Shown here in pieces: positions 1,865-42,660 of a DNA stretch of 64,000 nt. The notes under the pieces are model-generated. The model made no database searches. It saw nothing but the letters and a program-made list of their open reading frames with translations, and had not been told where the DNA came from. Each line of letters opens with the position of its first letter. Position 1 is the stretch's first letter. Source of the stretch: Eledone cirrhosa. Taxonomy: Eukaryota. The stretch is taken from contig OZ024744.1 of NCBI GenBank assembly GCA_964016885.1, positions 76,942,001-77,006,000 of the forward strand, in the 5' to 3' direction. The position numbers and the translations under genes were made by a program.

Positions 1865-2222
1865 CCCTTTTTTTTTTTTTTGTCGGACTGCCAGTAACCT
1901 CCCCTCGTTCAAAAATACTGTTTATTTAAAAAAAGCCCCCAACATAGTTTTTTGTAAGAACCTTTGTTGAGTTATGTTCCAAACACCAATTTAATGAGAA
2001 TGTTAGCTATATTACTAAACCTATTCCTTTTTATGTAAGAAGCTTTATCTAAAAATCTCCCATAATAATTTTCTGTGAGAGCCTTCGTTAAGTTATGCTC
2101 CAAACACCAGTTAATAATGTGAGGGTTAGTTATTACTAAACCCACAGATTATTTTTAGCATTTTCAAAATTATATAGAAACCATAGGCAGTGTTTTTCAT
2201 TAGGAATATGGTTATGAAAGGG
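1865..2222. mobile_element. piggyBac-like MITE
   Basis: TTAA|CCCTTT at 1861 and AAAGGG|TTAA at 2217-2226, with an internal ~120-bp duplication. Confidence 0.5.
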
Positions 2223-2495
2223 TTAACGATCTAAACTATTTCAAAACTACTTCGTAAATAAAGGTGTGGATCTAAACCTTTAACACTAAACTTGACAGAT
2301 AAACAAATAGTAGTTGAATATTCGTAAAATATGAGATTGTCAAACTACTCCTCTCTCTTTATATGTTGTACACAGGCAGCATATGTAAAGAGAGAGGAGT
2401 AGTATGAGATTGTCAAACTACTCCTCCCTCTTTACGTGTTGTGACAGAATCGTAGAAATATCTATATATATCTATATCTATCTATCTATCTCTGG

Positions 2496-2568
<73 letters not shown>

Positions 2569-2967
2569 CTAAAACGATGTGATTGTGTGCTTCTCTGTAA
2601 TTCAATACAGCCAAAACGGCGCATAATGGAAAAATACTTTGAAAGGAAGTTGCCCCCGAAACGGGAATACAAATGGAATAAAACAAGTTTCGCGAGATAC
2701 GGGGTTTTTCCGGGTACCTTCATAGAGAGAGAGAAAGATTGAGGGAAAGAGAAAGTGGTTGTGAGAGAGTAGATTGAAAGAGAGGCATGGGGAGAGATAG
2801 AGAGAGAGAGGGGGAGAGAGAGAGATGGAAAATAGAAGAGAGAGAGAGACAGCTGGTGGTGATGTTGAATGAAAGTGACTTCAAAGAATTGAATACAGCA
2901 TTAATGTATCTAGATCGAATTTGGTGACAGAATATTAAATCATATGTAAATAGGAAGATTTTCTAAA

Positions 2968-3025
<58 letters not shown>

Positions 3026-3026
<1 letters not shown>

Positions 3027-4402
3027 TAGCTGAGCTACCTGGTGATTCCCGGGTATTTTATTAAAGTTACAACATTTTACCATTGAAATATGATTGCTGA
3101 ATTTTAACTAAAGTAGGAATTATAGCAGAATAGCAGTTTGTTTAAAGCAAATCATGTAGATAAAAATATTATTAGTTTTGTCCAGATGTGATTTTTTAAA
3201 ACTGCTCCCTAATACAGTCAGCATATATAATGCTTCGCACTTGGAGGAATCATTAGGTATGTTGTCAGTGAAAAGGGCATGACCAAAAAATAAATTTAGA
3301 TTTTATTTATCCTTTTTATTTTTTTTTAACACAATCAGAACCTCTGAAATTCAAACAAAATGTGAAGGCTATTTTAAAAAGCATAAATAAAATAAAATTA
3401 AAATAATAAATTTACCATTGGTTTATGAATGAATGAAGAATTTACTTACTCATTTCTGTAATTCAGGAAAAGTTATTTAAATTGTCTAAGTGTGGTAAAT
3501 ATATACATATATACGAGGAACCAACCTCCCACTGTCACTGCCTCCATCTCTCCCGATCTCCCACCACTCACTATTATGAGCAAATGGCGACCCACGCGCT
3601 GACCGGCCAGCAACCCACGTGGTCGGAATAGAGGATGATGAGGGAGATGCGCTGGAAAATCCATTCCGGCTTGCGAGGCTCACCCCTGTGGGTAGCCAAC
3701 TCTGTGCCAATGGTGGTGAGTTGGGAGGTAGCCCTAGAGCCAAGGACTCCAGAAATCTCCATTGCTATGGGCTCAACAACAAACCTGTCGGAGAGCGACC
3801 GATATTTGGAGAGTTTACGCTCCTTGGCGGCAGAGCCTGGGTTAATTAAAATGTTTACACTGTAGCTTTCACCAACTTTTACTTCCATGGCAGTAGGATC
3901 TTGTTTGAGGGAGATTTGTTTCTATTTCTTTTAGGTACACCAACAGTTATAGTGGCTTCCATGACACACACATGCATGTGTGTGTGTTTGTGTGTGTAAG
4001 ACTGTTTGCTGTGATTTGAAATGGATTTTGCTAATATTTCTAGTAGATCGAGGTGTCACATACAACCTTCCCTTTTTGCATCATATATATATACATTCAT
4101 GAGACAGTAGACTGGGATATATATGTCTCTAACTTAAGTACAGTGGCAAACACACACACACTTATCTCTAATTTAAGAACACAGGGACACACATGGGCGC
4201 GCGTGCACACACACACGCTCACATACACACAGTCTCATTACGACTTTTGTGAAAGAGAGAGAGAAAGAGAAGTAATGTTAAGAAAGGAGTTAGTTAAGAG
4301 GTGCTTAAAAAATAAATAAAAAGTTAGTTATCGAACTATGATATCATTTTTCTGTTTGCTTTCTCTCTCTTTCTTAGGTTCTCTTTCTCTCTCTCTCTCA
4401 TC

Positions 4403-4461
<59 letters not shown>

Positions 4462-4756
4462 CCACTCTCTCTCTCTCTTATCCACTCTCTCTCACCCCCT
4501 CTCTTTCTCTCTCTTTCTCTACAGAATGAAGAACAAAAAAACAAATAAGTTGTTGCCTCGTTTTGGAGGAGGAAGGGGAGAAGTAGGAGGGAGGGTTTAA
4601 TGTCCCCAGGGGTTCTATGATTTTTACTGAAATCCAATTAGCCAGTCCTGTTCCTGAATATTAGCTTAACATGTGTGTAAAGTTTCATCATGATCGGCTC
4701 ACTAGTTTAGACGCCAACAGGTTACACAGAGACAGACAGACATTGCCATTTATATA

Positions 4757-4760
<4 letters not shown>
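3026..4760 (-). mobile_element. Non-autonomous Helitron-like element containing nested fragments
   Basis: CTAG terminus with a subterminal hairpin (ACCTGG..CCGGGT) at 3026-3055. The other end has (GACA)n plus TTTATATA, the same layout as 5434-6068. Confidence 0.45.
3500..3845 (-). mobile_element. CRE-type (RLE) LINE 3' fragment
   Basis: Translates as PGSAAKERKLSKYRSLSDRFVVEPIAMEISGVLG..WIFQRISL, homologous to copies at 19000, 54190 and 55530. Confidence 0.7.
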
Positions 4761-4805
<45 letters not shown>

Positions 4806-4850
4806 GAAAGTAAAACAAAGAAGCCTTCAATACATCAAAAGTCTTTATTA

Positions 4851-4888
4851 GCCAACAATGTTTCGTCCTATTAAGGACTCATCAGGGC
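4851..4888 (-). ncRNA. Canonical minimal type I hammerhead ribozyme
   Basis: GCC-CTGATGA-GTCCT-TAAT-AGGAC-GAAAC-ATT-GTT-GGC. All conserved core nucleotides are present and helices I, II and III pair. Confidence 0.85.
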
Positions 4889-5433
4889 AATTAAAACAAC
4901 AAGAAGTATTATCGGCCAATACAAGCCGGAAACTCCGAAGAATATGGAGTGTACATACACTAAAGTATTGCAAGATTATGTGTAAAAATATATAATAAAA
5001 ATATATAATAAAAATCACTAAGGAGGTGTATAACATATAGAACCATATTACAAATATAGTCCAAAGCAAAAAAACCCTAGAGCTAAACAAAGGTGGTTAT
5101 ATAGAGCAGGAATTATATATAATACAATGTAATATAATATAATATACCTTTACCAATATTAAAATTACAATAAAAATCAAAAGGTACAATATACATATGT
5201 ATATATGTACGCACACGTACGCACACATACACATACATCAATACACATATCCATCTTCAACTGCACAAATTAAACCTTATTAAGAGTTTGAATATAAATA
5301 AGCATGATAGGAATAAAAATAATAATAATAATAATAATAATAATACATATACCCAATATACATGAGGTAATAATATGATATTATTATAAGTAGCACATAT
5401 AATATATAATAAACTATACAATTATATACTATA

Positions 5434-6068
5434 CTAGCAGTAAAGCCCGGCGTTGCTCGGGGTCGCTCAGTAGCTGTGTTAAAGTTACAATGTTAAGTTT
5501 CTTTTTTGGCTTAAAGTCTGTCTGCACGACTGTCTGTCTGCACGCCTAACGAAATTTACAGATACATATATTTTAAATAAACTTATATAATTTTTGCTTT
5601 TTTTTACGAAATATTTGCTTGTTTTACTTAGTCTTTAAATATACTTGTTTTCAAGTAAAAATATTGTTTTAAAAGGCTTTTAAATGGAAATGAAGCAAAA
5701 CGAAAGCTTAGTCTTCGAACTGATGAATTTTGCAGGTCAAAATTTTGCTGGCTCGACAACTGTTCGTGTATTGTGTTAATGTCATTTTAAACGCTGAGAA
5801 AGCCAGCGTAATTTTTTTAATTTTTGCACGCAGAAAATGTAAACAGAACAAAGGGAAATAACTCGTCACTTACGCTCAAAAATCGATACATTAGATTCGA
5901 TTTCGTCACATAGGGTGGGTCAATTTGAAATATCTTTTTTCCGATGTCTTCGCTAGGGCTCAATGTACAAGTATAGGAATTTCGGTGCAATTCCGTCAGA
6001 GATTCTAAGAGGAGATGTGTGCCAAAAATCGATAGACAGACAGACAACCACAGGTTTATATATATAGA
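5434..6068 (-). mobile_element. Non-autonomous Helitron
   Basis: On the minus strand it starts A|TCTATATATATAAA, has (GTCT)n near the 5' end, and ends with hairpin CCCGAGCAACGCCGGG then CTAG|T. No TSD. Confidence 0.75.
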
Positions 6069-6471
6069 TAATATAATATAATAGAATAGATAATCTCCAG
6101 TTAATTTACACAAACAATATAGATGTCACAATAATACTATAATAATAATATACTAACATTTATAATATACAATATATAATGGCATTCAAGTTAACAAATC
6201 AATTCATATAGAGTTACAGAGTAGGTGAGGAAAAATAAATTGTACAATACCCAAAATTATGATGGTACAAAAATATAAACATCTTACATGATATATAAAG
6301 TTTAACATATCATAATGTTACATATAATTAACGGTAAGTAATAAGGATCGATATTACAATAACAAATACAATATAATATAATATAAAATAATTAACATAA
6401 TATAATATATAATATATAATATATAATTACTTATAATTACAAGGTTGGTAAACAGACATGTATATATATAG

Positions 6472-6915
6472 GGAGTGTAACGCGGAGTTACTGTAGGTTC
6501 ACCCGGGTGGGCACCCGATGTTTAGTATGGCGTCATTATCGAGGTGTAGAGCTAGACAAAGTGTAATATTCTGTCATTACAGCTACAGAGGTACGACGAG
6601 CTTTTGATTCCAGAGTCGGGCCAGATGGATACAGATCGAAACCTTGAGCTGATCAGTAGCCAAACGTGCGTCACCAACCAATAAACGTAATGAAGGAGTA
6701 ACCAATCGTACTCATATAACTTTGCCTTTCATCCTTACGAGGGTCGATAAAATAAAGTACCAGTAATGTACTGGGTAATTGCTGGCCTTGTGCCAAAAAG
6801 TAGAAACAGTTATCATATTACACTCTGTCTAGCTCTACACCTCGATAATAACGTGAACCTAAACATCGAGTGCTCACCTGGGTGAACCTACAGTAACTTC
6901 GCGTTACACTCCCTG
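6472..6915. mobile_element. Degenerate copy of the 93-416 family with inverted ~100-bp arms and a SINE fragment (6716-6812)
   Basis: 6472-6570 is the reverse complement of 6815-6915, and 6590-6712 matches 280-398. A further fragment lies at about 52146-52220. Confidence 0.6.
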
Positions 6916-7176
6916 GATATATATATATATATATATATAATATATTTAGAAACACACAGATACATGCGGACACACACATATACATGAATGCATCCACACC
7001 TAACCGTGAGTTAATGGTGCCAACCTTACCGATGTTGCTCAATGAATGACTGGAACAGACCAATCCGGTTGAACTAGACTGAACCAGTATCAGAGTTAAA
7101 AATACATTATGAAGAGAGAAGAAACATTTAGATATAATTAGTAATAAAATGTATCATACCTAAACTGCTCCTAGAT

Positions 7177-7266
7177 TCCTCGACTACGTAGTTTCGTGGC
7201 ATAAACAAAAACAGTACATCATAAAGATATAGAGCCTTTGCGAGGTCTGCCGACTTATCAAGAGGA
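7177..7266 (-). ncRNA. Type I hammerhead motif, U3-A8 core variant, long helix-II loop
   Basis: TCCTC-TTGATAA-GTCGGCA-(insert)-TGCCAC-GAAAC-TACGTA-GTC-GAGGA, with a perfect 5-bp helix I and a palindromic loop III. Confidence 0.75.
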
Positions 7267-7484
7267 TACCTCATTTTACTAGCTTCAAGAACGCGTCTAC
7301 ACTACGTGAGAAAGAATCCCAAAAGGCGGAGGGGGAGATAGTCACGCGATATAACGGTCGAGAAACAGATATATATATATAGGGCGGTGGATTGTTGGCA
7401 GTATCTGCAGAGTCGGACACCAAATTTGCAGCATAGAGTTACGGTCCTTTACGGTGTGTGTGTGTGTGTGTATGAGTGTGTGTG

Positions 7485-7522
<38 letters not shown>

Positions 7523-7619
7523 ATATATAGATACCCACATAGCAAAAGATAGAAGGAAAAAAAAGAAGAAAAAGAAAAGAAAATTTAAGCATCGAATGAA
7601 AGGGGAAAGAAAGGATGAA

Positions 7620-8385
7620 GCGGCAGATTGAACATTGCAGCCTGAGTGGCGTGCTCCAGCTGCGCTTAGCAGACAAAATGGCAAAGGCATTGCCGCAGAG
7701 AATGGCCAACGACAAACGCTGCAACAATCACCCTACATCACGGGGCATACACCAGCTCGGACGGTATGCTTTAGCTGCGCCCAGCAGAAAAATAAAATGC
7801 CGAAGTTATTAGCCGAGGAGAATGACCAGTGATAAACGCTGCAACAACCACCCTACCTCACTGAGCTCCTACCGTAGGCGGACTGCATGCTTCAAAAATG
7901 GCGAAAGCATTGCTGAGGAGAATGACCAGTGACAAACGCTGCAACAACCACCCTACCTCACTGAGCTCCTACCGTAGGCGGACTGCATGCTTCAAAAATG
8001 GCGAAAGCATTGCTGAGGAGAATGACCAGTGACAAACGCTGCAACAACCACCCTACCTCACTGAGCTCCTACCGTAGGCGGACTGCATGCTTCAAAAATG
8101 GCGAAAGCATTGCTGAGGAGAATGACCAGTGACAAACGCTGCAACAACCACCCTACCTCACTGAGCTCCTACCGTAGGCGGACTGCATGCTTCAAAAATG
8201 GCGAAAGCATTGCTGAGGAGAATGACCAGTGACAAACGCTGCAACAACCACCCTACCTCACTGAGCTCCTACCGTAGGCGGACTGCATGCTTCAAAAATG
8301 GCGAAAGCATTGCTGAGGAGAATGACCAGTGACAAACGCTGCAACGGCCATCTTACCTCACAGAGCTCTACCTTAGGCGAACTGC
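7620..8385 (-). repeat. 100-bp tandem array derived from a CRE-type LINE C-terminus
   Basis: GAGGAGAATGACCAGTG starts at 7815, 7915, 8015, 8115, 8215 and 8315. The minus strand reads GWLLQRLSLVILLSNAFAIF, matching LQRLSLAILCGNAFAILSA in the adjacent diverged unit. Confidence 0.8.
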
Positions 8386-8399
8386 GTAATGTAATTTAA

Positions 8400-8790
8400 T
8401 TGTTTCTACTTTTGGCACAAGCCCAGCAATTACCCCAGTGCATTACTGGTACTTTATTTTATCAGCCCCGTAATGGTGAAAGGCAAATTTAACCCCGGCG
8501 GGATTTGAACTCAGAACGTAAAGGGCCATAATGCTATGCTGCAATGCAAGTTGTCCGATGCTCTACCGATACTGCCAACCCAATAATAATACTAATAATA
8601 ATATTTTTTTTTTACTTTTGGTACAAGGCAGGGCAATTAACCCTGGGTGTTACTGGCACTTTATTTTATCAACCCCGTAACGATGAAAGGCAAAGCTAAC
8701 CTCGGCGGGATTTGAACTCAGAACGTAAAGGGCCATAACTCTATGCTGCAAAGCATGGTGTCTGACGTTCTACCGATTCTGCCAATCCGT
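8400..8790 (-). mobile_element. Two SINE family 1 copies
   Basis: Same core and tail as 962-1380, separated by (AAT)n. Confidence 0.85.
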
Positions 8791-9184
8791 AATTTAATGT
8801 CAATGAACTGATTTCTCTATTTTCACACTTTGTATTCATTTCTCTGACGCCGAGAGAAATATAAGAACAGTTCAAATTTCTCTTATTTCCTTGTTCTATA
8901 AATCAAGACATTCATAATACAAGGTTGTACGCGGTAACATCAAGTTAGCCTAGATATTTTATTTAGCTACTTTGACACCTCTTTATTTTCCCTTCAGTGA
9001 GTTTATTACGGCATTGAGATGGCCTATCATCACATCACCATCTATGATATAAATAACAGAGGCTGCTGTAGTCAAATCATTTTTATCAAAAATAAGAAAA
9101 AAAAATGATAATAATAAATCATTCACCTATTCCTCCCTTCTTTCGTAGCTTAAAACAGATGAAAGGGCAATGACCAGAAGAATG

Positions 9185-9963
9185 TGAGTGATATGATTTA
9201 CGTTAAGTGATGTGGTTTATACTGAGTGATGTGGTTTATACTGAGTGATTTGGTTTATACTGAGTGATGTGGTTTATACTGAGTGATTTTGGTTTATATT
9301 GAGTGATATTGTTTATACTGAGTTATATGGTTTATACTGAGTGATATGGTTTATACTGAGTGATGTGGTTTATACTGAGTAATGTGGTTTATGCTGCGTG
9401 ATATGGTTTATTCTGAGTGATGTGGTTTATACTGAGTGATATGGTTTATACTGAGTGATATGGTTTATACTGAGTGATATGGTTTATACTGAGTGATATG
9501 GTTTATACTGAGTAATGTGGTTTTTATTGAGTAATGTGGTTTATACTGAGTGATATGGTGTAAACTAAGTTATGTGGTTTATACTGAGTGATATGGTTTA
9601 TACTGAGTGATATGGTTTATACTGAGTGATATGGTTTATACTGAGTGATGTGGTTTATACTGAGTGATATGGTTTATACTGAGTGATGTGGTTTATACTG
9701 AGTGATATGGTTTATACTGAGTGATGTGGTTTATACTGAGTGATATGGTTTATACTGAGTGATGTGGTTTATACTGAGTGATAGCTTTATACTGAGTGAT
9801 ATGGTTTATTATTAGTGATATGGTTTATACTGAGTGATGTGGTTTATACTGAATGATATGGTTTATTATGAGAGGTATAGTTTATACTGAGTGATATGGT
9901 TTATACTGAGTGATATGGTTTATACTGAGTGATATGGTTTATACTGAGTGATATGGTTTATAC
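9185..9963. repeat. 19-bp minisatellite (GGTTTATACTGAGTGATRT)n, about 40 copies
   Basis: Direct reading of the 19-bp periodicity. Confidence 0.95.
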
Positions 9964-19644: not shown

Positions 19645-20510
19645 TCTATTTAGTACGGCTGTTACTTAAATATATACATACTACTGTACGTCTGTATACA
19701 TATATGTATGTACGTGTACATACTTATATTAAAGTAACAGCCGTACTAAGAGTGGGAAATGAAATTTCGTTTCATTTTTTCCGTTTATCGTTTTCGGTGC
19801 ACCCGGCCGATTAACCCACTCGATATGCAAATTGGGCTACTCAGCCGTTAATATGCATAAGGTAAGTATATACGTTCAACAATCTGGCAGGAAGGTATAC
19901 GTTTCTGACGATAGCTAATAAGCTTGAAACTAGTACAGCGTTCCTTTGTCAGTGTTGAACAAACGAGCAACGATGGTTGCTGGACACTACGGCTTAATAC
20001 GGGATGTTTGTTTACAAACACACCGAGTATTATAATAAATGTTCGGTGAATCCATACGTACATATATATGTGTGTGCATGTATGTATATATATATATACA
20101 TACTACTGTACGTCTGTATACATATATGTATGTACGTGTACATACTTATATTTAAGTAACAGCCGTACTCAGAGTGAGAAATGAAATTTCGTTTCATTTT
20201 TTCCGTTTATCGTTTTCGGGGCACCCGGCTGATTAACCCACTCGATATGCAAATTGGGCTATTCAGACGTTAATATGCATAAGGTAAGTATATACGTTCA
20301 ACAATCTGGCAGGAAGGTATACGTTGCCGACGATAGCTAATAAGCTTGAAACTAGTACAACGTTTCTTTGTCAGTGTTGAACAAACGAGCAACGATGGTT
20401 GCTGGACACTACGGCTTAATACGGGATGTTTGTTTACAAACACACCGAGCATTATAATAAATGTTCGGTGAATCCATACGTACATATATATATGTGTGCA
20501 TGTATGTATA
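19645..20510 (+). mobile_element. Tandem dimer of a 422-bp non-coding retrozyme-like unit, one HHR per unit
   Basis: Exact 422-bp offset with HHRs at 19899-19941 and 20321-20363. A short inverted tip lies at about 19650-19668, and the flanks are (TA)n. Confidence 0.8.
20321..20363 (+). ncRNA. Type I hammerhead motif (also 19899-19941 on plus and 49433-49475 on minus)
   Basis: Consensus ACGTTG-CTGACGA-T-AGCT-AATA-AGCT-T-GAAAC-TA-GTA-CAACGT. This copy has CCGACGA, while the other two have CTGACGA. Confidence 0.75.
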
Positions 20511-20511
20511 T

Positions 20512-21064
20512 AACCCTTGTATCATAGACACCCTATATATTTCCAGGGGTACTTAGTACCTGTGGGGATATTATCTTCTTTTAATATTCTCCGTTATGTA
20601 GAGAACAAATCTGTTGTTCTATTTAGCTGCTATTTTTAGTGGCGAGGTAGACAATACGTCTATGTTTACTTCCGCTTCTACTACGGACTGGTTCACGCAT
20701 AGGTCAAATTTTCGGCCCCATTCGATCCTGTGCTAGCTGGCAGATGGCAATATATTTTGCCGTTCCTGGGACTTTTAGTCCTAGGAAAGGAAAATGCTTT
20801 CTGATGATCTAAACTTTTCCATTGGAGGTCCCTATGGATCTCCAATCTTTTGTGAAGTGAAACCGATCGGTAAAAGCAATTGGAATAGGTAAATATTTAA
20901 ATTATATTTTTTTATTTATTTTCAAAAATTGTTTGAATCTTGCTTGCTCCGCTTATCTCAATATTATAGTTCTGGTATGTCAAATTAATACCATAGAACA
21001 ACCCTTGTATCATAGACACCCTATATATTTCCAGGGGTACTAAGAACCTGTGGGGATGTTAACT

Positions 21065-22599: not shown

Positions 22600-24415
22600 C
22601 GTTTGTATTTGTAAAGCCAAAACAATGCAGGTATGGACATAGAATATAAATGCAAATGCAAAAGATATTGTTAACAATTAGTCTTTTACCTTAAATTTAT
22701 TTAAATGTCCTTAATTTTCGAGGTAATATCTCTTCTTCGGAGAGAAGTAAAGCGGTTAAACCAGTGTTCTAAATGGCTTGCCAAGTCATGCTGACAGGAA
22801 ATGGTATAGAGTATCTGTTCTATCTCTAATGTCAAAGAGTTAAGGTTAGGTGGATAAAAAGTAGTCTCCCTTTAAAAGGGGTTTTGTACATGTATGTTTA
22901 AGTGTGTGGGAGAATACGCAAGGTGTAAGTATGTGTGTGTGTGTGTGTGTGTGTGAGTGTGAGAAGATATGTCTATACGTAAATGTGGGGGATAGATGCT
23001 CTCTCGTGTTAGAACTGGTCTTTGTGTGTGTATGTGTGTGTGTGCGTGTGTGTGTGGGAGGGGGGTAAGTATGGGGCTAGATGCTCTATCAAGTTATAAA
23101 TTGGGTGTTGAGTTCTAGTCTATTATATGTTGTGTTTTGTCTATAATTAGTGCTTCTTTAATTCTAAGATTGTCGAGGTTTCTTTCCTTAGTTTCTATCC
23201 TAATTGTTATGGTTTTGTCGATGTTTTTGCATTTTACTAGGTGTTTCTTAAATGAGGAAGCGTTAGTATTGAGGTGTTCTTTTATTCTTATGTGAAGTAG
23301 TCTGGTGGTGCTACCTACGTAGAAGTTGCTGCATTTGTCGCACTCTAGTCTGTATACGACGTAAGCCTGGTGGCATCGGTCTGTGTCGTTGATGTGGCAG
23401 TTGGCTAGCCTGCAGCGGCTGTCATGTCTGGTGGAGTGTCTTTTGGTTAGCTGTCCGCGTAGAGAAGGTCCTGAGTGGGCTAGTTGGATATCTAGTCCCT
23501 CTCGTCTGATAGCTCTGCGGATGGGCTGTTGTTGTTTCATCACTGAAGTGTGGGAGCTTCAGGAAGCAAGTGTTAGTGCCTCGGGTGTGGTGTCCTCTGT
23601 TCTTTCTGGCACGGTTCGTGGTGGATGTCGGTATCCGTTCAGTTTGAGTACTTCCCAGAAATGTGTGGTCTGTGTGTCTCGGTCTCTAGCGTCGGTGCAT
23701 TTGTTCCGGATACGTGTAATTCGTTCCTTATGTATCCGAACTAAGCGCCGGCTGGGAGGGCCGATCTGAAATGTACGAACAGGTGCCTGCTGGCGGGTTT
23801 TTAAGAATTAAGGAAGCACTAATTATAGACAAAACACAACCACCAATCAATAATAGACTAGAACTCAACACCCAATTTATAACTTGATAGACCATCTAGC
23901 CCCATACTTACACACACACCCCGCCCACACCCACGCACATGCACACACACACACACATGCCCCTACACCTCCACTTATTCTCTCTCACACACACATACAC
24001 ACACAAAGACCAGTTCTAACACGAGAGAGCATCTATCCCCCACATTTACGTATAGACATATCTTCTCACACTCACACACACACACACATACTTACACCTT
24101 TCACGTATTCTCCCACACACTTAAACATACATATACAAAACCCCTTTTAAAGGGAGACTACTCTTTATCCACCTAACCTTAACTCTTTGACATTAGAGAT
24201 AAAACAGATACTCTATACCATTTCGTGTCAGCATGACTTGGCAAGCTATTTAGAACACTGGTTTAACCGCTTTACTTCCCTCCGGAGAAGAGTTATTATC
24301 TCGAAAATTAAGGACATTTAAATAAATTTAAGGTAAAAGACTAATTGTCAACAATATCCTTTTGCATTTGCATTTATATTCTATGTCCATACCTGCATTG
24401 TTTTGGCTTTATAAA
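22600..24415 (-). mobile_element. 5'-truncated Penelope-like element with inverted copy of its 3' end
   Basis: About 22600-23170 is inverted at about 23805-24415. It contains a GIY-YIG ORF and degenerate minimal HHRs at 22708-22744 (-) and 24278-24314 (+), and has (TA)n flanks. Confidence 0.85.
23115..23543 (-). pseudogene. PLE GIY-YIG endonuclease domain remnant
   Basis: C..C linker followed by VVYRLECDKCSNFYVGSTTRLLHIRIKEH..FKKH..LRIKEALII. Confidence 0.85.
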
Positions 24416-24792: not shown

Positions 24793-26910
24793 AAGAGGTT
24801 CGTTGTTGTGATAATGGTCAGCAGGGATGTGTGTGCGAACCGCAGCCTGTTGACAGTTCAAATACCTATTAAGACAAGTGTGTGTGTGGGGGCGGTGTAG
24901 CAGAGTAATTCGTTGTAGAGAGATGGTCGGTAGGAATGTGTCTGTACGTGTGTCGGGGATAGTTTAACATGTTAAAAGATATTTTTCAGCTCTTGTCTTA
25001 TACGGAGCAGTGTGTGTGTGTGGGTGTGTGGGGGGGTGTAGCAGAGTAATTCGTGGTAGAGGGATGGTCAGTAGGAATGTGTCTGTACGTGTGTGGGGGA
25101 TATTTTAACATGTTAAAAGATATTTTTCAGCTCTTGTCTTATACGGAGAAGTGTGTGTGTCGGTGTGTGGGTGTGTGTGTGCTTGAGGGTGTGGGTGTCT
25201 GTGTGTGTGTATATATGTCTCTGTGTATGTTAATGTACGCGTGTGTATGTGTGTGTGTATATATGTGTGTGTGGGTGGACTAGTATTTTTGTGATACTGG
25301 TAAAAATGGTGTACATTTTTCGATATTTTCAGTAGAAACGATTCTCTCAATAGAACATCAAAAACCTTAATAATAAAAGGTGTGAAATGATATATAGTAT
25401 TGGCATAATACCAAGGTGTGTGTGAGTGTCCAGATTGTACGTACTGCAAGGGGAATCCATTAGGCCTTGCCGTATTGGAATACTTGTGTACAAATATCTA
25501 TGTGCCCATCAGTGTGCAATGCATGTGTGCGTTTATGTATGTGTGTGTGTGTGTGTATAGCAGAGTAATTCGTGGTAGAGGGATGGTCAGTAGGAATGTG
25601 TCTGTACGTGTGTGGGGGATATTTTAACATGTTAAAAGATATTTTTCAGCTCTTGTCTTATACGGAGCAGTGTGTGTGTGTGTGTGTGTGTATGTCTCTT
25701 TGTATGTTAATGTACGCGTGTGCATATGTGTGTGTATATATATGTGTGTGTGTGTATATATGTGTGTGTGTGTGTGTGTGTGAGAATGTGTGTGTGTGTG
25801 GGTGGACCAGTATTTTTGTGATGCTGGTAAAAATGGTGTACATTATTCGATATTTTCAGTAAAAACGATTCTCTCAATAGAACATCAAAAACCTTAATAA
25901 TAAAAGGTGTGAAATGATATATAGTATTGGCATAAGACCAAGGTGTGTGTGAGTGTCCAGATTGTACGTACTGCAAGGGGAATCCATTAGGCCTTGCCGT
26001 ATTGGAATACTTGTATACAAATATGTATGTGCCCATCAGTGTGCAATGCATGTGTGCGTTTATGTATGTGTGTGTGTCGGCACCTTTATATCTATAGACA
26101 TCAAAAGGTATGCAAATTTGTGTATATTTGTGTTGCACCATAGAACATGTGTGTTTACGTATGTCATTGTATTTATATGTTGATAGAGATGTATGCTGAT
26201 GTAGGTATGTATGTTGACGTGTGTATGTTGTGGGTTCGTCTTAGGGAGAAGCGTTTAGACGGGGTCCGTATTTGTTAATAAAGTGAGATTCCTTGCTGAT
26301 GCGCTGGGTGTGGTTGGCATTATCTTTAAATTTGTAGAGGGGAAAGATTCTGAAGTTGGGATGATTTTGGGCGGCACAGGTATCAATGTGTTCACTCAGT
26401 GGTATTTTCCTGTATTCCCGTATTTTAATTTGGGATCTATGAACAGTCATGCGTTGGTGGAGGCTGTTTTTGGTCTGGCCTATGTATTGTTCTCGACAAC
26501 CTGAGCAAGTTAATACATATATTAGATTTTCTGATGCGCATGTGAAATTGTGTTTTACTATAAAATGTTGTCCTTCTTTGAAATAGAATTCCGAACCCTC
26601 TATTAGGTTGATGCATATGCCACAGTTGGGTCTATCGCATCTTTTTACTGTGGGTTTCGTTGTTGTGGTTGGCAGTACTTTGGCATGTGTTAGGATGTTT
26701 TTCATTGACTTAGATTGTCTTTTGCTCTTTATGATATCGTGTGTTCGTAGGATTTGGTTCATTCTATGGTCCTTTTTCAACACAGGGATGTTCTGGAGGA
26801 TGGTGTCAAAGGCCTCATTGTTGAGGGGGTTGTGTGTGGAGATGTATGGAAGAGCTTTTAGTTTCGGTTGATTTACTTTAGGGTGTCTAAGATCCTGGGT
26901 ACTGAGTTTT
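24480..26910 (-). mobile_element. 5'-truncated Penelope-like element with long, internally duplicated 3' UTR
   Basis: GIY-YIG ORF 26241-26783, a ~520-bp duplication in the UTR, (GTA)n at 24713-24792, and a degenerate U3-A8 HHR at 24547-24585. Confidence 0.8.
26241..26783 (-). pseudogene. PLE GIY-YIG endonuclease domain (frame open, element truncated)
   Basis: CDRPNCGIC..NFTCASENLIYVLTCSGCREQYIGQTKNSLHQRMTVHRSQI..LSEH..RISKESHFI..LN. Confidence 0.9.
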
Positions 26911-26912
26911 AT

Positions 26913-26969
<57 letters not shown>

Positions 26970-27149
26970 CGTTTGTGTTGGATGGTTTAACTAATACTTA
27001 GAACTTGTCATTCGCATTAGCAGACGGTGATATGTAACATCCATCGTAGATTTGCTAACTTGTTGTTGGTGCTGGAGCGGATTTAAATGTTTCGAAAAAA
27101 CACTATACGTTCTTCTATAGCCGGCGGCTTACACAATAGTTGTTTTAAC

Positions 27150-28029: not shown

Positions 28030-30375
28030 CCAAGATCACTGTAAAAATAAAAACATCATCACAGATTAACAAACAGCTGGAAAGAAAGGGGTTTGGGGAT
28101 GTGCTGAACAACTCCTAATCAACAAAACTGCGATGTCGGAGGTGCGACAACTTAGGAGGAATATGACTACAGTCTGGCTGGACTACAGGAAAGTTTTCGA
28201 TTCTGTTCCCCACTCCTCGATGATAGAGTCCCTCCGACTTGCTAAAGTCCCAGACATTATTATCAGAGCCATAGAGAAGCTGTTTTCTTCTTAGGCTACT
28301 TACTATCCTAAAGTTAAAGACAGAGAAGGAGGACTCTATTTTCACTGATAAAATAAAATATCGCAGGGGTATATTTCAAGGAGACAGTCTCTCTGTGATA
28401 TTATTTATCCTGTCATTAAACCCCTTGTCCTTTCTTCTCAAGAAATGTGTAGGATACATCATTGGCTCACAGGACAGAAATGCGAACCTAACCCATAATT
28501 TCTTAGTGGATGATCTGAAACTCTATGCCAAGAACATGGATGGGATGAAGAAAAATCTTAACCAGGTTACAACATTCTCAAATGATATAGGAATGTAGTT
28601 TGGCCAAGATAAATGCTTATATATGACTGTAAAGCGGGGAAAAACAACAACCCAATCTAGCAACATTTGTATCAATGGCCTAACTGTTTCACCGATATCT
28701 GATGAGGAATCTACAGATACCTGGAGAGAGATGAGAACATATCCTATAATTTTATCTGTAATAAGGAGCGCGTAACCAGGGAATACTACACCCGATTAAG
28801 AAAGATATGGTCATCGGAACTCTCTGCGCAAAACAAAACAGTGGCTCACAATGTGTTTGCTGTGCCTGTCCTAACACCAACGTTTGGAATACTCAATTGG
28901 ACGATAGACGAAATCCGAGCAATTGATGTTAGAACTCGAAAAATACTAAACAACACCGAAAACTTCCACATCAACAGTGACATAGACCACCTTTACTTGA
29001 AAGGTAAGCAGGGAGGCAGAGGCTTAACATCAGTCCAGAAAGCATTTGAATGTCGCATCATATCCCTCCGACAACATGTGCGAACCTCGAAGCGTAGGAG
29101 CCCGTCTCTCGAACAAGTCTATCTGCATGAAACAGATAAGATCATGAGAGTTGGGAAGGAACTCTTCGAAAGATATTCTCTGTGTGATAATCAAAATCTC
29201 ACACCCAGGGAAGTCGCTCAGCAGTATCGCAGTGAATCCATGGATAAAAAACTGCATGCTTATCAGCAAAAAGTCATGCATGGATATGTTACCAGGAAGC
29301 TCCAGAGTGAGAGTAATATAGATAAAGAAAGTAGTCTATCTTGGACCAACAACCGCTATATTGGCTCCCACTTTGAAGGATACGCTTTTGCAATCCAAGA
29401 ACAGGAAATCAACACGAAATACCTGTTTCACAAAAGAGATAGGGATGCAGGCAAAACACCTAGATGTGCTAACAAGTGCAGACTCTGCAGAATTAATATC
29501 GAAGATGTCACCCCTGTCATAAACAGCTGTCCAAAGATGTCATCGTGGTACTATCTACCTATGAGGCATGATGTAGTGGCCAAAACACTGTACAATGCAA
29601 TTCGTAGAAAAGATAGCCCGATAATAAACACATTAAAAACTTCAGCAACGTGGAAGACATACATATACATAATATGAAAGAGTACTGGTGGAATCTTCCA
29701 GTAAAAGCCCCAATAAAATGCAGGCATAACAGACCAGATGTTATGATATGGGACAGGGAAAAGAAAGCAGGCACAGTCTGATATGGGACAGGGAAAAGAA
29801 AGCAGGCACAGTAGTGGAAATTAGCTGCCCAGATTAGTGAAAAGGAGAATATTTATGGAGAACTGATGAGAAATCTGCAGATACTCCACACTGATTACAC
29901 CTACAGATTTATGCCTGTGATTATTGGGGCACTGGGATATGTTAGTAACTGCCTCAATACAAATCATGAGAAGCTAGGCTTCACAGGAACAGAAAGAACA
30001 CAACTAGTTAGGAAATTACAAGTGCAATCCATTAATGGAACAGTAAAAATATGTAAAACATTCCAAAAATTCTGCATCTAATAACTGCATAAACACATGT
30101 ACAGAAACTAAGCATATACACATGCACACATACAACTCAAAACATACACATCCACACATACAATAACATCCATATCTACACATGCATGCATACATAAATA
30201 TCTACCTAGTTGATGTTGTGTAAATTCCAATGAGAGAGCCTTGTGTCTATGTTAGAAACCGACTCTCTCTTTATTGGGAAAAAATTTGTGAAATTATAAA
30301 ACCAGAAGAATATACATAAATTATAAAACCAGAAGAATATACATAAATTATAAAACCAGAAGAATATACATAAAT
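28030..30375 (+). mobile_element. 5'-truncated R4/Dong-type non-LTR retrotransposon (RT + zinc knuckle + RLE), frameshifted
   Basis: WLDYRKVFDSVPHS, RGIFQGDSLS, FLVDDLKLY, CRLC..SC, RHDVVAK, HNRPD, EISCP, MPVIIGALG. The 3' end has a 27-bp unit repeated three times. Confidence 0.85.
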
Positions 30376-30605: not shown

Positions 30606-30699
30606 CCGTATATCGACAGTCAATCTACTGTCAAATCGACCGAAGAAACAATGTTTCCGTTGCTCTTTCTAATTGCTAATACTATATATCTATCTATCT

Positions 30700-33186
30700 A
30701 ACGAGGGAGTCAAAGCAGTTAGCTGGGCCCGAGTGACGGAGGCAAAAAGTGGCAACAAGTCCACGATTCGGTTTTTTAAGGATCAAAGCGGACGCGTGAT
30801 ACGTGAGCCGAAGCAGATGTGTGCAGCCTTTCAGCAGCACTTTGCTCAACTGTTCGGGCGGGGCGGCGCACCGGGAGGGGCTATAGATTTCGCTCCATAC
30901 CTCGACGGCCTACCGCGACTCTCGCACAGCGAGGCAAAGTTCTGCGAAAAGCCGATTTCAGCCGCTGAGATAGGGGACGCGCTGAGCCAATGCGGCAAAC
31001 GCAAATCTCCAGGTCTCGACGGTCTACCCTACGAATTTTACGTAGCAATGCCGGACTTATTCTCCGGTCTACTGGAAGCGGTCTACTGCAACTGGCAACA
31101 GTACGGGAGAATTCCCAGTTCTGTAACCGGGGGCGTAGTCACACTAGTCAGGAAGGACGAGAATAAGGGGGATGACATGGGCAACTTCCGGCCCATAACT
31201 CTGCTAAACACAGAGTTACAGATTTTGGCCAAGGTGTTGGCAAAGAGGCTGGCGCTTGTCGTCGAGAACCTGGTGGGAGAAGCGCAGACATGCACAATCC
31301 CGACCTGCTCGATGCGGCAGGCTTCGGACCCGTGTTCAGGGGCTGAATTGCTGCAATGCACAACAGCAACATCTGCTCAAGGGTCAAGGTGAACGGCTAC
31401 CTCTCGGAGCCGTTCCATATTACGCGATCTATTCGACAGGGATGCCCTCTCTCCTCCCTTCTGTACGTGCTGACTCTCGAGCCACTAGTGCGGAAGTTGG
31501 AGCTATTGCAGAGCATCCCTCTGGAACCGGGACTGCGGAAAGCGGCGTCGGCATACGCCTACGATGTGACAGTAATGGTGTCGAGCGCCTCGCAAATCGA
31601 GGAAGTCGGCACCTTACTGAAAGAATACGAAGGTTTCACAGGAGCGAAGCTGAACCGGGACAAGTCCATTGGTTTGCAACTCGGATCGTGGAGAGGCAAA
31701 CCGATGCCTTCCGATGGCGTCGTCGGACGCTGGACGGAAGGACCGGTAAAGTTGCTCGGGGTCTGGTTTGGTCCCGACCTCCAGGTGGAGAAGAACTGGA
31801 ACGAAGTGACGGCCAAGGTGTTTGCACTCACCCAGAAGTGGGCCGAGTGCAAACTATCCATGAAAGGTCGAGCAGAGGTGGCGAAGACTTTTATAGCGTC
31901 CGCCATCTACTACCGCTTGACCGTCGTGCCTTATCCAGCCAAAACGCTCGCCAAAATGGAGCGCGCGCTCTTCCAATTCCTTTGGAAGAGGCGGGCTCCT
32001 TTGGTGAGAAGATCCATCTGCTGCCAACACCCTTCTAACGGAGGGCTGTGGATGATGTGGATGCCGTGGTTGACGATGGGCAAACACGCGCTCAGGCTGC
32101 GGCATCTCTACGTATTCCTCACCAGACAACCGATGTGGGCCTCGTTCGTGAGGCGAGCCTTCCCACGACTCGTCTTGCTTACCGAGCTGCAGTCCTGGGT
32201 CAAGCAAAGACCGAGGAAAATGGGCGACTGGCACATCGAATGTGCTCAGGCGCTCACAGCCCTCTGGCAGACGGACCCGGCGATCAGTGGAGACTCCACT
32301 TCGTCATTCTATAGAGGGTTGATCCGCAGCAAGTGCGACGATGCGCTCGGTGAAACTCTAGACATAGAGGAAGATGAACTGGCCAGTCTGTTCGGTAGGA
32401 CCTTCCGCCCGGGACCGATGGACAACTTCCAAAAGTCCCTGGCCTGGCAGTGCTACCGAGGAGCTCTACCAGTTCGAGACAAGCTCTAAAGACATGGACG
32501 CCCGGGCAGGGACCCTGCAAAAAAGATCGGTCCGAGGTTCGTGCGTAACGAAGAAACCGTCGCGCACGCATTCATACACTGCCCGGGCGTCACTGACCTG
32601 TGGGGCTATGTAGAACGACTTTTGTCGCGGGTGGGACCAATCCAGTTGACCACCGAGTCCATTCTCATGATCAAACCGCCACTCTCCTTCAAAAACGAAG
32701 GAGAGGCGGTTTTCCTTTGTGTGATAGCTATGGCGAAAGAGGTTGTATGGTGGACAAGGTTGAAATGGCTGAGGTCAGACACCTTTCTCTCCGGCCAACA
32801 ACTGATTCTATTTTTCAAATACCACTTTGGAAGAAGAATCAGGATGGAGAGAGAGAGGTGCTGTACCCCAGCAAGTTTTATGAAAGGTGGGTGAAAGTGG
32901 CGAGAATGGTACGAGTGAATGAGCCTTCTCTCTATATCAGCATGTAGGTTGAGGAAAAGGAGGAGGAGAGGAAAGGAGTACAAACTCTTCGTACTCCTGG
33001 AGATGAGGGTTGCACATTTTTTCGGGGGTATGTGTTACCCATATGAACTGTCTCCCCCTATTGGGGAAAATCGACCACTTTTTTAAATTGCATTTGTGAT
33101 AACATTTTACACGTTTTTATTGTATGTAAACTTCCCCCTTTGTATTTTTCCCCTTCTTTTGTGCCCCTGTGGCTAATAAAGAAACA
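30700..33186 (+). mobile_element. 5'-truncated Tx1-clade (L1 group) LINE ORF2 + 3' UTR
   Basis: KSPGLDGLPYEFY, FRPITLLNTE, IRQGCPLSSLLY, AYAYDVTV (degenerate YADD), ETVAHAFIHC. Internal deletion near 31305. Ends AATAAAGAAACA+(TATC)n. Confidence 0.9.
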
Positions 33187-34269: not shown

Positions 34270-36596
34270 CGCAAACATAACCAAAACAAGAACAACAAAC
34301 CAAACTGCAAGCGCAGTCCCACCCAACCCCACTCCACCTAAAACCACTGCAAAAATACCCACAAACACAACAGCTCCCCAAAACATACCCCTTCCAAATA
34401 ACACAGACACCACAACAGACGAGGCCCCCTCATCATCGCCAAGTTACGATGAGGGAGAGCCTCTCCGTTCGAAAAGAAAGAAGAAAAGACACCACAAGAA
34501 CAAAAAAGCAACAAACATCACTACCAACATATAACCACCAACACAAACATTACAAACAAAAACCCCCCGTCCCGAAAACAAAACCACGACATCACTCCAA
34601 ACACAAACACTTACAACAAAACGAATGCTCACACAAGAACAACAGACAAAAACCAACACGACACAAGAACATTACACATACATAAACAGTGAAAACAAAA
34701 CTTTAATGGAGGTCATCTCCCAACTTTTTCGAACTGTGCAGACAGACCTAATTTAAAGATGATTAGGGTCCCTACGGACACCTATAAGTCTTTAAAGGAA
34801 AACTTTCCTAAGGACGTGGGTAATCCTTGTGTTAAACCCATTAACCGCGTCCTTTTAAAATGTTTCCCCACCCTTACCCCAGACACGCCCTCCCTACCAA
34901 ACATCTCCGTCCCCACCCCGCCGGAAACCACCACCCACCAAACAACCCGTCCAACACCCCCATGGAAATTGTGCAGCCTGGTCCCCAGGAGACGAAGAGG
35001 TGAGTGATTTATTTTCCTCTTCTTTTAACCAGCATGGCCAATATAAGAGTTGGATGTGTGAATGTACGCGGCCTGTGGATGCCCTGGAAACAGGGCAAAC
35101 TCTTAAACGACCTCAGGTCGCACAGTATGGATGTTGTAGCCATTTGCAAGTCCAGGATCGACAGCGAGCGACAACTGGACGGAAGGACCGGTGAAGCTGC
35201 TCGGGGTCTGGTTTGGTCCGGACCTCCAGGTGGAGAAAAACTGGAACGAAGTGACGGCCAAGGTGTTTGCACTCACGCAGAAGTGGGCCGAGTGCAAACT
35301 ATCCTTGAAAGATCGAGCGGAGGTGGCGAACACTTTTATAGCGTCCGTCATCTACTACCGCTTGACCGTCGTGCCTTGTCCAGCCCCAAAAACCAAAATG
35401 GAGCGCGCTCTTTTAATTCCTTTGGTTAGAAGATCCATCTTCTACCAACACCCTTCCAACGGAGGGCTGGGGATGCCGTGGCTGACGATGCGCAAACACG
35501 CGCTCAAGCTGCGGCATCTCTACGTATTCCTCACCGGACAACCGGTGTGGGCCCCGTTCGATAGGCGAGCCTTCCCACGACTCGTCTCGCTGACCGAGCT
35601 GCAGTCCTGGGTCAAGCAAAGACCGAGGAACATGGGCGACTGGCACATCGAATGTACTCAGGCACTCACAGCCCTCTGACAGGCGGATCCAGCGATCCGT
35701 GGAGACTCCACTTCGTCATTCTATAGAGGGTTGATTCGCAGCAAGTGCGACGACGCGCTCGGAGAAACTCTGGGCGTGGAGGAAGACGAACCGGCGACTC
35801 TGTTCGGTAGGACTTTCCGCCCGGGACCGATGGACAACTTCCAAAAGTCCCTGGCCTCGCAGTGCTACCAAGGAGCTATACCAGTTCGAGAGAAGCTCTG
35901 CAGACATGGGCGCCCGGGAAGGGACCCTTCGAAAAAGAACTGTCCGAGATGCGAGACGAAGAAACCGTCGCGCACGCATTCATAACACTGCCCGGACGTT
36001 ACCGACCTGTGGGGCTATGTAGAACGACTATTGTCGCGGGTGGGACCAATCCGGTTGACCATCGAGTCCATTCTCATGATCAAACCGCCACCCTCCTTCA
36101 AAAAAGAAGGAGAGGCGGTTTTCCTTTGTGTGATAGCTATGGCGAAAGAGGTTGTATGGTGGACAAGGTTAAAAGGGCTGAGGTCAGACACCTTTCTCTC
36201 CGGCCAACAACTGATTCTTTTTTTCAAATACCACTTTGGAAGAAGAATCAGGATGGAGAGAGAGGTGCTGTACCCCAGCAAGTTTTATGAAAGGTGGGTG
36301 AAAGTGGCGAGAATGGCCCGTGTGAATGGGCCTTCTCTCTATATCAGCCTGTAGGTTGAGGAAAAAGAGGAAGAGAGGAAAGGGGTACAAACTCTTCGTA
36401 CTCCTGGAGATGAGGGTTGCACATTTTTTTCGGGGGTATGTGCTACCCATATGAACTGTCTCCCCCTATTGGGGAAAATAGATTAACTTTTAATTTGCAT
36501 TGTGATAATATTTTACACGTTTTTATTATATGTAAACTCCCCCCCTTTCTATTTGTCCCCTTCTTTTGTGCCCATGTGGCTAATAAAGAAACATAT
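33215..36596 (+). mobile_element. Internally deleted Tx1-clade LINE retaining 5' UTR, ORF1, APE start and 3' end
   Basis: ORF1-like region 33418-34755. ORF2 start MANIRVGCVNVRGL..DVVAICKSRI (35034) is fused at about 35177 to sequence matching 31730 onward. The 3' UTR is nearly identical to the upstream copy. Confidence 0.85.
33418..34137 (+). pseudogene. Putative Tx1 ORF1 N-terminal part
   Basis: 239-aa ORF with an Asn/Thr-rich segment and SFAQTV motif, lying between the 5' UTR and the APE start. The downstream frame is broken. Confidence 0.55.
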
Positions 36597-40949: not shown

Positions 40950-42660
40950 GGTTATTATTTGTTTTTTGTTTTTTACACGCAGAAATATTCATTAGTACCG
41001 TCCTGTATTGTCCTGTGCTGTTCTTAATGTTATACTTTATGTCAAACCCTTGTGGTTAAATAAGAAAGCATAATTATTATCATTAGTGGTGTCGAACGCC
41101 AAACACATCGAGGCGATCGGCACCACTCTAAGAGAATACGAGGCAGTGACAGGAGCAATGATCAACGAAGAAAAGTCGGTGGGCCTGCAGCTCGGCACTT
41201 GGAGAGGCAGGTCCATGCCGTCCAACAGCGTCGTCGGGCGGACGGACCGGTTTAAATTGCCGGGCGTCTGGTTCGGTCCGGATCTCCAGACGGACAAAAA
41301 CTGGGACGAGGTGACGAGCAGGGTGGCCTCTCTCATCTAGAAATGGGCCGAGATGAAGCTATCCCTGAAAGGTCGAGCGGAGGTGGCGAACGCGTACATC
41401 GCGTCCGTCATCTACTACCGCCTGACCGTCGTGACTTGTCATAAGCCTCACCTGACTGCACTGGGGCGTTTGCTCTTTCGCCTTTTGTGGAAGGGACGAG
41501 CTCCGATGGTCAGGCGGGTCCATCTGCTGTCAACACCCGCTACGCTGAGGGCTGGTCATGCCGTAGCTGATGATGCGCAGACATGCACACAGCCTACGAC
41601 ATCTCCACCTCTTCCTCGACGGTGATCAGGTGTGGTCGCCCTTTGCTAGACGCATGTTTCCCCAGTTCGTCTCATTGACGGAGCTACAGTCCGGCGTCAA
41701 GCGAAGTCCGAGAGGGAAACTGGAATGTCTTCAGGCGCTCACAGCCCTCGACCAGCTGGGCAATGCGGTCGGTGGAAACTCTACCTTGGCGTTCTATAGA
41801 GAGTTAGTGGAGGGAAAGAGCGACGACGTACTTGGGGAGACTCTGGGCGTCGACGAAAATCAACTAGCCAATCTCTTCGGGAGAATTTTCGGGCCGAGGC
41901 CCATGGAAAACTTCCAGAAATCCCTGGCCTTGCCAGTTCGGGATAAATTCTACAGGCATGGAAGTGCCGTTAGCCGGGCCTGTCCGAGATGCGCGCAGGG
42001 CGACGAAACCGTCCTGCACGCACTCGTCCAGTGTCCGAGAATTGCTGACTTGTGGGTTTATGTCGAACACCTGCTGTCATGTGTAGAACGGATCTGGCTA
42101 TCAGCTGAGTCCATCGCGAGGATTGCCCCGCCGCCTTCCTTTAGCCGGGAAGGGCAGGCAGTTTTTATCTGCCTGGTGGCCATGATAAAAGAGATCGTAT
42201 GGTGGACACGTCTGAAAGGGTTGAAGACGGTACTTTCCTCTTCGGTGACGCCCTCATTAACCTTTTCAGGTTTCACCTGAAAAGGAAAATCAGAGTGGAG
42301 AGGGAAGTGCTGCCTTCCAGCCAGTTTGTTGAAAGGTGGGTGAGAGAGGCAAGAATGGCCCGTGTGAATGGGCCTACCCTGAGCGTGTGCCTGTAGTATC
42401 GTAGGAGGAAAACTGGAAGAGGGCACTTGCCCTAGCGGTCAGGGTAACCGTGGCTTTTTGGGGGGCGTTCTCCACGAGCGACCCTCGGAAGTCTCCCCCT
42501 ATTGGGGAATTTTTCATTGTTTTCTTTTTTGTTACATCCTCTGTTTTTGTTTTTTTTTTACACGCAGAAATGCCCATTTGTACCGTCCTGTATTGTTCTG
42601 TGTTGTACTTAATGTTATAGTTTGTGTCAACCCTTGTGGTTAATAAAGAAAGCATTATTA
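40950..42660 (+). mobile_element. Second Tx1 subfamily: short 3'-UTR stub (40950-41070) followed by a 5'-truncated copy (41085-42660)
   Basis: GAMINEEKSVGLQLG, CPRCAQGDETVLHALVQC. Both pieces end (A/T)AAGAAAGCA+(TTA)n-like sequence. Confidence 0.85.

Follow-up and report, generated by a model that had tools for sequence, protein, structure and literature searches.

The hammerhead ribozymes that occur within pseudo-LTRs of Penelope-like elements (PLEs), including a U3-A8 motif in Cercyon of Schistosoma mansoni and a variant in Penelope of Drosophila virilis, represent the comparison system for the locus described here (Cervera and De la Pena 2014, PMC4209133). About 1,300 U3-A8 motifs have been reported in the PLEs of S. 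mansoni, while a bulged helix II and a palindromic helix III have been published for other PLE hammerheads (PMC4209133). Cutting by the PLE hammerheads has been proposed to serve retrotransposition or circularisation (PMC4209133; PMC6765202), and the metazoan representatives are described as cleaving poorly in vitro (PMC4209133). In about 40% of hammerheads, stem I and stem II are brought into contact by a pseudoknot of 4-6 bp (Perreault et al. 2011, PMC3088659). Among the PLEs described by Craig et al. (2021, PMC8557442), two Selaginella motifs have a loop 2 of 35 and 29 nt and the core halves of eight Naiads lie 35-50 nt apart, while loop 2 measures 3-10 nt in 32 of the 34 rows of File S2 of that work. 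The PLE insertions described there are furthermore characterised by 5′ truncation, inverted partner copies and (TA)n targets (PMC8557442).

A hammerhead is also located on the minus strand of a 64,000-nucleotide stretch of Eledone cirrhosa DNA, the whole of which is referred to here as the window (Table 1). Read on this strand from 7266 to 7177, UCCUC is followed by UUGAUAA, a helix II that starts from G7254-C7196, GAAA (7195-7192), C-UACGUA-G, U7183-C7182 and GAGGA. The core thus combines UUGAUAA, with a Watson-Crick 3-8 pair, with GAAA and the NUH triplet GUC, and is surrounded by helices of 5 bp, 2 + 4 bp and 3 bp, open at helix I. The G10.1-C11.1 and A15.1-U16.1 pairs are intact, positions 3 and 8 have been changed jointly to a Watson-Crick pair, and the spacing from A9 to G12 is 59 nt. 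Judged from its letters, the motif is a real type I hammerhead-type motif, whose cleavage is predicted. The original prediction of a hammerhead with a U3-A8 core, a perfect helix I and a GUC triplet at this place is borne out letter by letter, with the minus strand, which it did not name, now assigned. Its palindromic loop III is also present but had been described as too short, as the palindrome ACUACGUAGU in helix III spans 10 nt (7192-7183).

Table 1. Features of the hammerhead motif and the surrounding repeat segment; positions are those of the window.
Feature	Position	Strand	Basis
(TA)n run at the opposite end	6917..6945	.	tandem-repeat scan
High-copy repeat segment, probable 3′ part or pseudo-LTR of a Penelope-like element, 5′-shortened	6946..7369	minus	contig depth and loose ends
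Whole type I hammerhead ribozyme motif	7177..7266	minus	pattern, constrained fold and simulation
Helix I 3′ strand, GAGGA	7177..7181	minus	
Site of predicted cleavage behind GUC (C7182/G7181)	7181..7182	minus	hammerhead numbering
Helix III, 3 bp and ACGU loop; all 10 nt palindromic, permitting a double-hammerhead dimer	7183..7192	minus	predicted fold
Helix II, 2 bp, bulged C7252 and 4 bp, with G7254-C7196 at the base; encloses the extension	7196..7254	minus	constrained fold
Helix II extension of 46 nt: internal loop, 8-bp G-U-rich stem, 2x2 loop and 6-bp hairpin	7202..7247	minus	MFE and constrained folds
Candidate pseudoknot strand ACCUC in the helix II internal loop	7242..7246	minus	5-bp complement to 7268-7272
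Core UUGAUAA, U3 at 7261 and A8 at 7256	7255..7261	minus	motif scan; unchanged in spanning contigs
Helix I 5′ strand UCCUC, partner of 7177-7181	7262..7266	minus	
GAGGU of the 5′ leader, candidate pseudoknot partner, separated by one base from helix I	7268..7272	minus	
Open frame of 32 codons ending 4 nt before helix I, possibly non-coding	7271..7369	minus	no credible homolog
(TA)6 at the 5′ truncation point	7370..7381	.	sequence

With the PLE hammerheads the motif shares the type I topology, a 5-bp helix I, the U3-A8 pair, the bulge in helix II and the palindromic helix III, as well as the occurrence mostly as single dispersed copies from truncated elements (PMC4209133). Unlike these, it has no extra nucleotide between A9 and G10.1, its helix III consists of a full 3 bp and a tetraloop where that of the PLE hammerheads is minimal, and in place of a short stem-loop between the core halves it has the 59-nt spacing and a candidate pseudoknot (PMC4209133). 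Reverse transcriptase (RT) and endonuclease (EN) are present in these PLEs (PMC4209133), whereas neither was linked to the focal family. A type I hammerhead with a short helix III, incorporated into a high-copy, low-GC and apparently non-coding repeat, is likewise a feature of the metazoan non-LTR retrozymes (Cervera and De la Pena 2020, PMC7229834), from which the focal family differs in that no tandem arrangement was seen, a unit would exceed 170-400 nt, and the core and helix II are non-canonical. U3-A8 covariation and a 10-bp dimeric stem III formed from palindromes are shared with natural hammerheads, but the helix II whose internal loop would contain the predicted pseudoknot strand is much longer than in the pseudoknotted examples described there (PMC3088659). 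The (TA)n targeting is shared with the PLEs of Craig et al., whose inverted 5′-truncated copies may have a counterpart in one contig of the focal family, while the U3-A8 pair, unlike in the focal motif, is found in 0/34 rows of File S2 (PMC8557442). The U3-A8 core, hammerheads in PLEs and palindromic helices III have all been published and as such the headline feature of this locus is not new. Its uncommon trait is the long structured helix II, as predicted by folding, with a possible pseudoknot. In the literature searched, no description of the focal family was found, nor any of octopus hammerheads other than that of Craig et al., while the words hammerhead and ribozyme are absent from the main text of the Octopus vulgaris repeat paper (PMC13282606).

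The original prediction also held that routine searches would overlook the motif, and this proved correct. No matches at the gathering threshold were obtained with the Rfam covariance models across the whole window, and at E-values up to 10 the region 6900-7450 produced six weak matches, none to a hammerhead, which were dismissed as low-complexity or chance. This outcome is expected given the 46-nt extension and the variant core, and lowers the case for membership of the library rather than for the fold. Plain folding stability is unexceptional (z = -1.74; 10/200 shuffles equally good), which, together with the absence of an Rfam match, could be taken to indicate that short words of repetitive DNA had come together by chance, as could the fact that relaxed patterns match unrelated DNA in very large collections (45 matches in metagenomes, 0/45 homologous by blastn, and 91 in the viral collection, none homologous). 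A descriptor allowing C3-G8 or U3-A8, with at least 5 Watson-Crick pairs in helix I, at least 2 pairs in helix II and up to about 100 nt between the core halves, which was fixed after the motif had been seen, however matched once in the window, at the focal motif, and never in 784 simulated 64-kb windows with the dinucleotide frequencies of the window. Furthermore, just one of the 91 viral matches has even minimal helices (4 pairs in helix I, 2 in helix II). The position of the motif close to one end of a repeat family also speaks against chance, as does the presence of several more repeats with hammerheads in the window. A chance origin is thus extremely improbable. Exact matches to the focal motif were absent from the metagenome collections.

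The 46-nt insert very likely folds, according to the models, as a prolonged helix II hairpin and not as a loose loop. Four of the pairs in the predicted 8-bp stem are G-U pairs, while the distal 6-bp hairpin contains one. The active fold of the 90-mer lies 1.1 kcal/mol above the MFE. Its ensemble weight is 0.02-0.035 for sequences of 90-114 nt, about 1e-3 when the upstream sequence to 7369 is included and 8e-7 for 6985-7369, values which ignore pseudoknots, tertiary contacts and their energy, and co-transcriptional order, but nevertheless count against easy folding. For two copies, the MFE structure is a double hammerhead joined through the palindrome, with both cores open (-60.7 kcal/mol, versus 2 x -23.5 kcal/mol). 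Pairing of the 5′ leader with the helix II internal loop in a 5-bp pseudoknot is suggested by a complement that arises by chance in 1.4% of composition-matched random pairs and in 385/42,660 12-mers of the window. Both candidate strands are invariant in the aligned family contigs, with no covariation, and the GAGG and CCUC words also permit a rival inactive register, in which the leader GAGGU pairs with the 5′ strand of helix I and breaks this helix. We regard the pseudoknot as a lead, with the odds somewhat against it.

The focal hammerhead belongs to an abundant high-copy repeat family, although a second copy of the segment could not be detected within the window by blastn or nhmmer. A run search listed 24 runs, none of them as RNA, and 20 of these contain part of the stretch. 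Contigs from four of the 24 were aligned onto 6950-7450, and runs with only a small share of the stretch were left aside; the family data consist of assembled contigs, none of which is on record as RNA. In run X1, 1068 contigs could be aligned (326 at 99% or more, 231 at 95-99%, 290 at 90-95% and 221 under 90%). Summed depth in this run is 78,441-595,536 in the bins from 6984 to 7374, versus 1,990-9,892 in those from 7375 to 7450, while several of the single contigs listed have depths of 6-16 each; the summed depth is not a copy number, but marks the family as high-copy. Variant places were listed where they reach at least 5% of summed depth, so that a C3-G8 minority below 5% is possible. Among the 26 such places, none is situated in the core, helix I, helix III or the pseudoknot strands, and none falls within 7174-7234 or 7238-7282, while contigs from two further runs (X4 record 20, 7223-7369; X11 record 15, 7238-7369) cross the core without difference. 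Homologous copies therefore retain the motif, where failure to do so had been named as grounds for rejecting it, and with no core variant reaching 5%, U3-A8 is the family-wide majority state and not a decay product of the window copy.

The window copy differs from the family majority at only 12 listed places, which suggests that the family is young and, as such, that the invariant core reflects inheritance and not selection. A divergent 262-nt contig (X1 record 2), with 17 other letters and three gaps, aligns only over the ribozyme and leader (7177-7276), and this alignment hints at selection. Five differences were observed in the extension, on comparison by hand with the predicted fold: three stem changes that retain pairing, one in the 2x2 loop and one in the terminal loop. 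The stem changes are A-U/G-U exchanges at 7235 and 7237 (in the majority) and at 7217. The last is found in the X4 loose end before 7223, where the G-U pair at 7229/7217 becomes A-U, one base of the 2x2 loop is changed and the terminal loop is shortened by two. All of the stem changes are one-sided and none is compensatory; gaps in X4 (7201-7222) and X11 (7204-7237) were excluded as evidence. Cross-species conservation based on the organism labels of the runs was rejected, as X4 and X11 carry the majority letters of X1 at a depth of 2-13, in keeping with trace DNA from this family.

An identical loose end follows 7369 in three of the four aligned runs (X1, X4 and X11), suggesting that the family continues upstream and that the window copy is 5′-truncated at (TA)6, 103 nt upstream of the hammerhead. 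The family sequence extends at least 50 nt beyond 7369, and X4 record 17 and X11 record 9 extend 94 and 150 letters past 6950. The segment 6985-7365, originally put forward as a candidate family, is indeed repeat sequence, but the family is not confined to it and continues past both sides. A second common family end lies before 7102, where eight X1 contigs terminate in (TA)n, and this places the hammerhead about 75 nt from a (TA)n-bounded end, compared to 230 nt from the end of the window copy. In X11 record 9, the sequence switches at 7167 to upstream sequence of the family in inverted orientation, a junction seen in this one contig. When reverse-complemented, the letters beyond the junction share the 10 letters shown with the upstream loose end of X11 record 15, and the lengths sum to the 50 of the latter. 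Immediately after (TA)6, the start of another, diverged repeat (7381-7450) is present in three of the four aligned runs, which we take to be SINE-like.

The window consists of repeat-rich animal DNA, with 110 tandem-repeat rows and LINE-like and GIY-YIG fragments. A second, unrelated family carries a C3-G8 type I hammerhead with 60 nt between the core halves, a spacing that can also be folded as an extended helix. Two of its copies (111-250, minus, and 260-398, plus) are inverted with respect to each other, head to head, with microsatellites on both sides. The third (6587-6711, plus) is decayed and located in an element with long terminal inverted repeats (about 6470-6916), which lies in a TA run and adjoins the focal segment. 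The window also contains a second U3-A8 family. Its minimal type I hammerheads, with the core UUGAAAA, a 4-bp helix II and a palindromic CCGG loop, are found at 52012-52049 (plus, motif at 52016) and about 49944-49981 (minus, motif at 49977), where they mark the two outer ends of an inverted arrangement that measures roughly 2.3 kb and has (TA)n on its flanks, and no protein homology was seen upstream of them. Hammerhead-like cores are furthermore present at 13859 (plus), 59637 (plus), 4885 (minus) and 63055 (minus), the first two of which belong to one family and are of the minimal CUGAAGAA type, with damage to the GAAA of the second, while the other two are CUGAUGA motifs with a helix II of 5-6 bp.

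Fragments of a PLE GIY-YIG endonuclease (Pfam PF01541, above cut-off) are located at 26241-26990 and 23115-23558, both on the minus strand. The former is 5′-truncated at (TA)n, and behind it tails that are repeated in part reach down to about 24880. Tandem arrays are found at 7815-8385 (5.7 copies of a 100-bp unit, 98% alike) and 19670-20512 (two copies of a 422-bp unit, 96% alike), and scans detected no hammerhead in either. Four plus-strand frames (28706-29677, 30673-32894, 35004-36354 and 41567-42280) resemble fragments of non-LTR retrotransposons, presumably R4/Dong-like and L1/Tx1-like; a Pfam search with the first of these frames gave no matches.

The focal family is probably the end of a PLE, or derived from one, on the basis of its sequence anatomy. 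Combined with the data on the motif, the best explanation, to which we assign a probability of about 0.6, is that the stretch represents the 3′ end of a PLE family in a 5′-shortened copy inserted between (TA)n runs, the family being abundant, fairly young and either autonomous or non-autonomous. The family would carry a type I hammerhead, as Penelope pseudo-LTRs usually do, and its founder would already have possessed the compensatory U3-A8 pair and a helix II lengthened into a hairpin that projects away from the core. The PLE-like anatomy includes (TA)n at both ends, the upstream continuation of the family, copies that end in (TA)n at 7102 and the inverted junction. The hammerhead lies near the 3′ end of the element, as in PLEs, while the pseudo-LTR duplication itself was not seen in the contigs. 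Insertion into (TA)n is found in PLEs, but is not specific to them in such a repeat-rich genome. The GIY-YIG fragments and the other PLE-type hammerheads in the window support the same assignment. Neither reverse transcriptase nor GIY-YIG could be linked to the focal family in a copy truncated so close to the motif. A Pfam search with the 32-amino acid upstream frame gave no matches, and its sole match among 1.84 billion representative proteins (P0002), a repetitive protein scored by summed repeats, was considered spurious. An assignment to the Naiad elements is unsupported, as four DNA motifs and one peptide, searched on one strand in text with line breaks, gave no exact matches in the Naiad, Chlamys and Hydra consensi of the PMC8557442 supplement.

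The stretch had originally been proposed to represent a further retrozyme family, of which the high-copy family part stands. A non-LTR retrozyme present as a solo, dispersed copy would derive from a non-coding unit that elsewhere forms tandem arrays, from which the hammerhead releases unit lengths that are circularised and inserted again. The very high copy number and the lack of any protein found fit such an origin, the full helix III is more like that of retrozymes than the minimal one of PLE hammerheads (PMC7229834), and solo monomers are described as common in retrozyme families, with units of 51-972 bp (10.64898/2026.07.22.740005). However, the window contains no tandem copy and the aligned contigs no head-to-tail joint, although a junction outside 6950-7450 would be invisible. 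In addition, the extension of the family at least 50 nt past 7369 and 94-150 nt past 6950 would require a unit of more than about 560-620 nt, compared to the usual 170-400 nt, and the inverted junction and (TA)n ends indicate PLE-type insertion. A retrozyme is as such unlikely, and an end of a PLE or a PLE-derived element is favoured over it as the probable identity of the family. Retrozymes have nevertheless been argued to derive from PLE pseudo-LTRs (10.64898/2026.07.22.740005), and the two explanations therefore shade into one another.

Whether the family's hammerhead cleaves is close to evenly balanced, tipping slightly towards activity. If it does, a minus-strand transcript of the element would be cut after GUC (7182/7181), making an end of the element RNA that would serve retrotransposition or circularisation. 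U3-A8 would restore the 3-8 pair and the long arm would point away from the core, and cleavage could take place as a monomer with the 3-bp helix III, possibly aided by the 5-bp pseudoknot between leader and internal loop, or alternatively as a dimer through the 10-nt palindrome. By analogy with other PLE hammerheads, we infer a role in RNA processing, while the solo copy in the window most likely arose through the spread of the family and is inert. The motif may instead be a hammerhead by descent that is catalytically dead or negligible throughout the family, an amplified passenger in which U3-A8 and the long arm are tolerated founder drift. The small weight predicted for the active fold when longer contexts are considered is in keeping with this, as are the competing register, the absence of compensatory changes from the family contigs, the low in vitro activity of metazoan PLE hammerheads (PMC4209133) and the spread of Naiad elements without canonical hammerheads (PMC8557442). 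On the other hand, no core position is damaged, nor are G10.1-C11.1, A15.1-U16.1 or the NUH triplet, positions 3 and 8 have changed together, the predicted dimer MFE has both cores open in the double-hammerhead geometry, and the divergent relative aligns only over the ribozyme. We give a dead passenger somewhat less than one chance in three. The most elaborate model, in which the lineage would use a long-armed type I hammerhead with a helix II arm of ~60 nt, an internal loop pseudoknotted to the 5′ leader, activity as a monomer and an on/off register switch, in which leader:loop and helix I pairing would alternate with leader:helix I strand and loop:3′ strand pairing, is speculative and we consider it rather improbable.

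Two unrelated families with a spacing of 59-60 nt between the core halves are present in the window, and the long-armed architecture may therefore have arisen more than once. The focal family makes the biological role of PLE hammerheads no more testable than other families do, but, should motifs of this kind cleave, a natural high-copy family would provide a test of peripheral support for a U3-A8 core, and of monomer versus dimer cleavage. If the more elaborate model is true, the long-arm architecture may account for PLE families that have been recorded as hammerhead-less or as possessing a "half core". If motifs with a long helix II cleave, current descriptors and Rfam models undercount the hammerheads in animal genomes, and claims that certain PLE families are without ribozymes would need to be rechecked.
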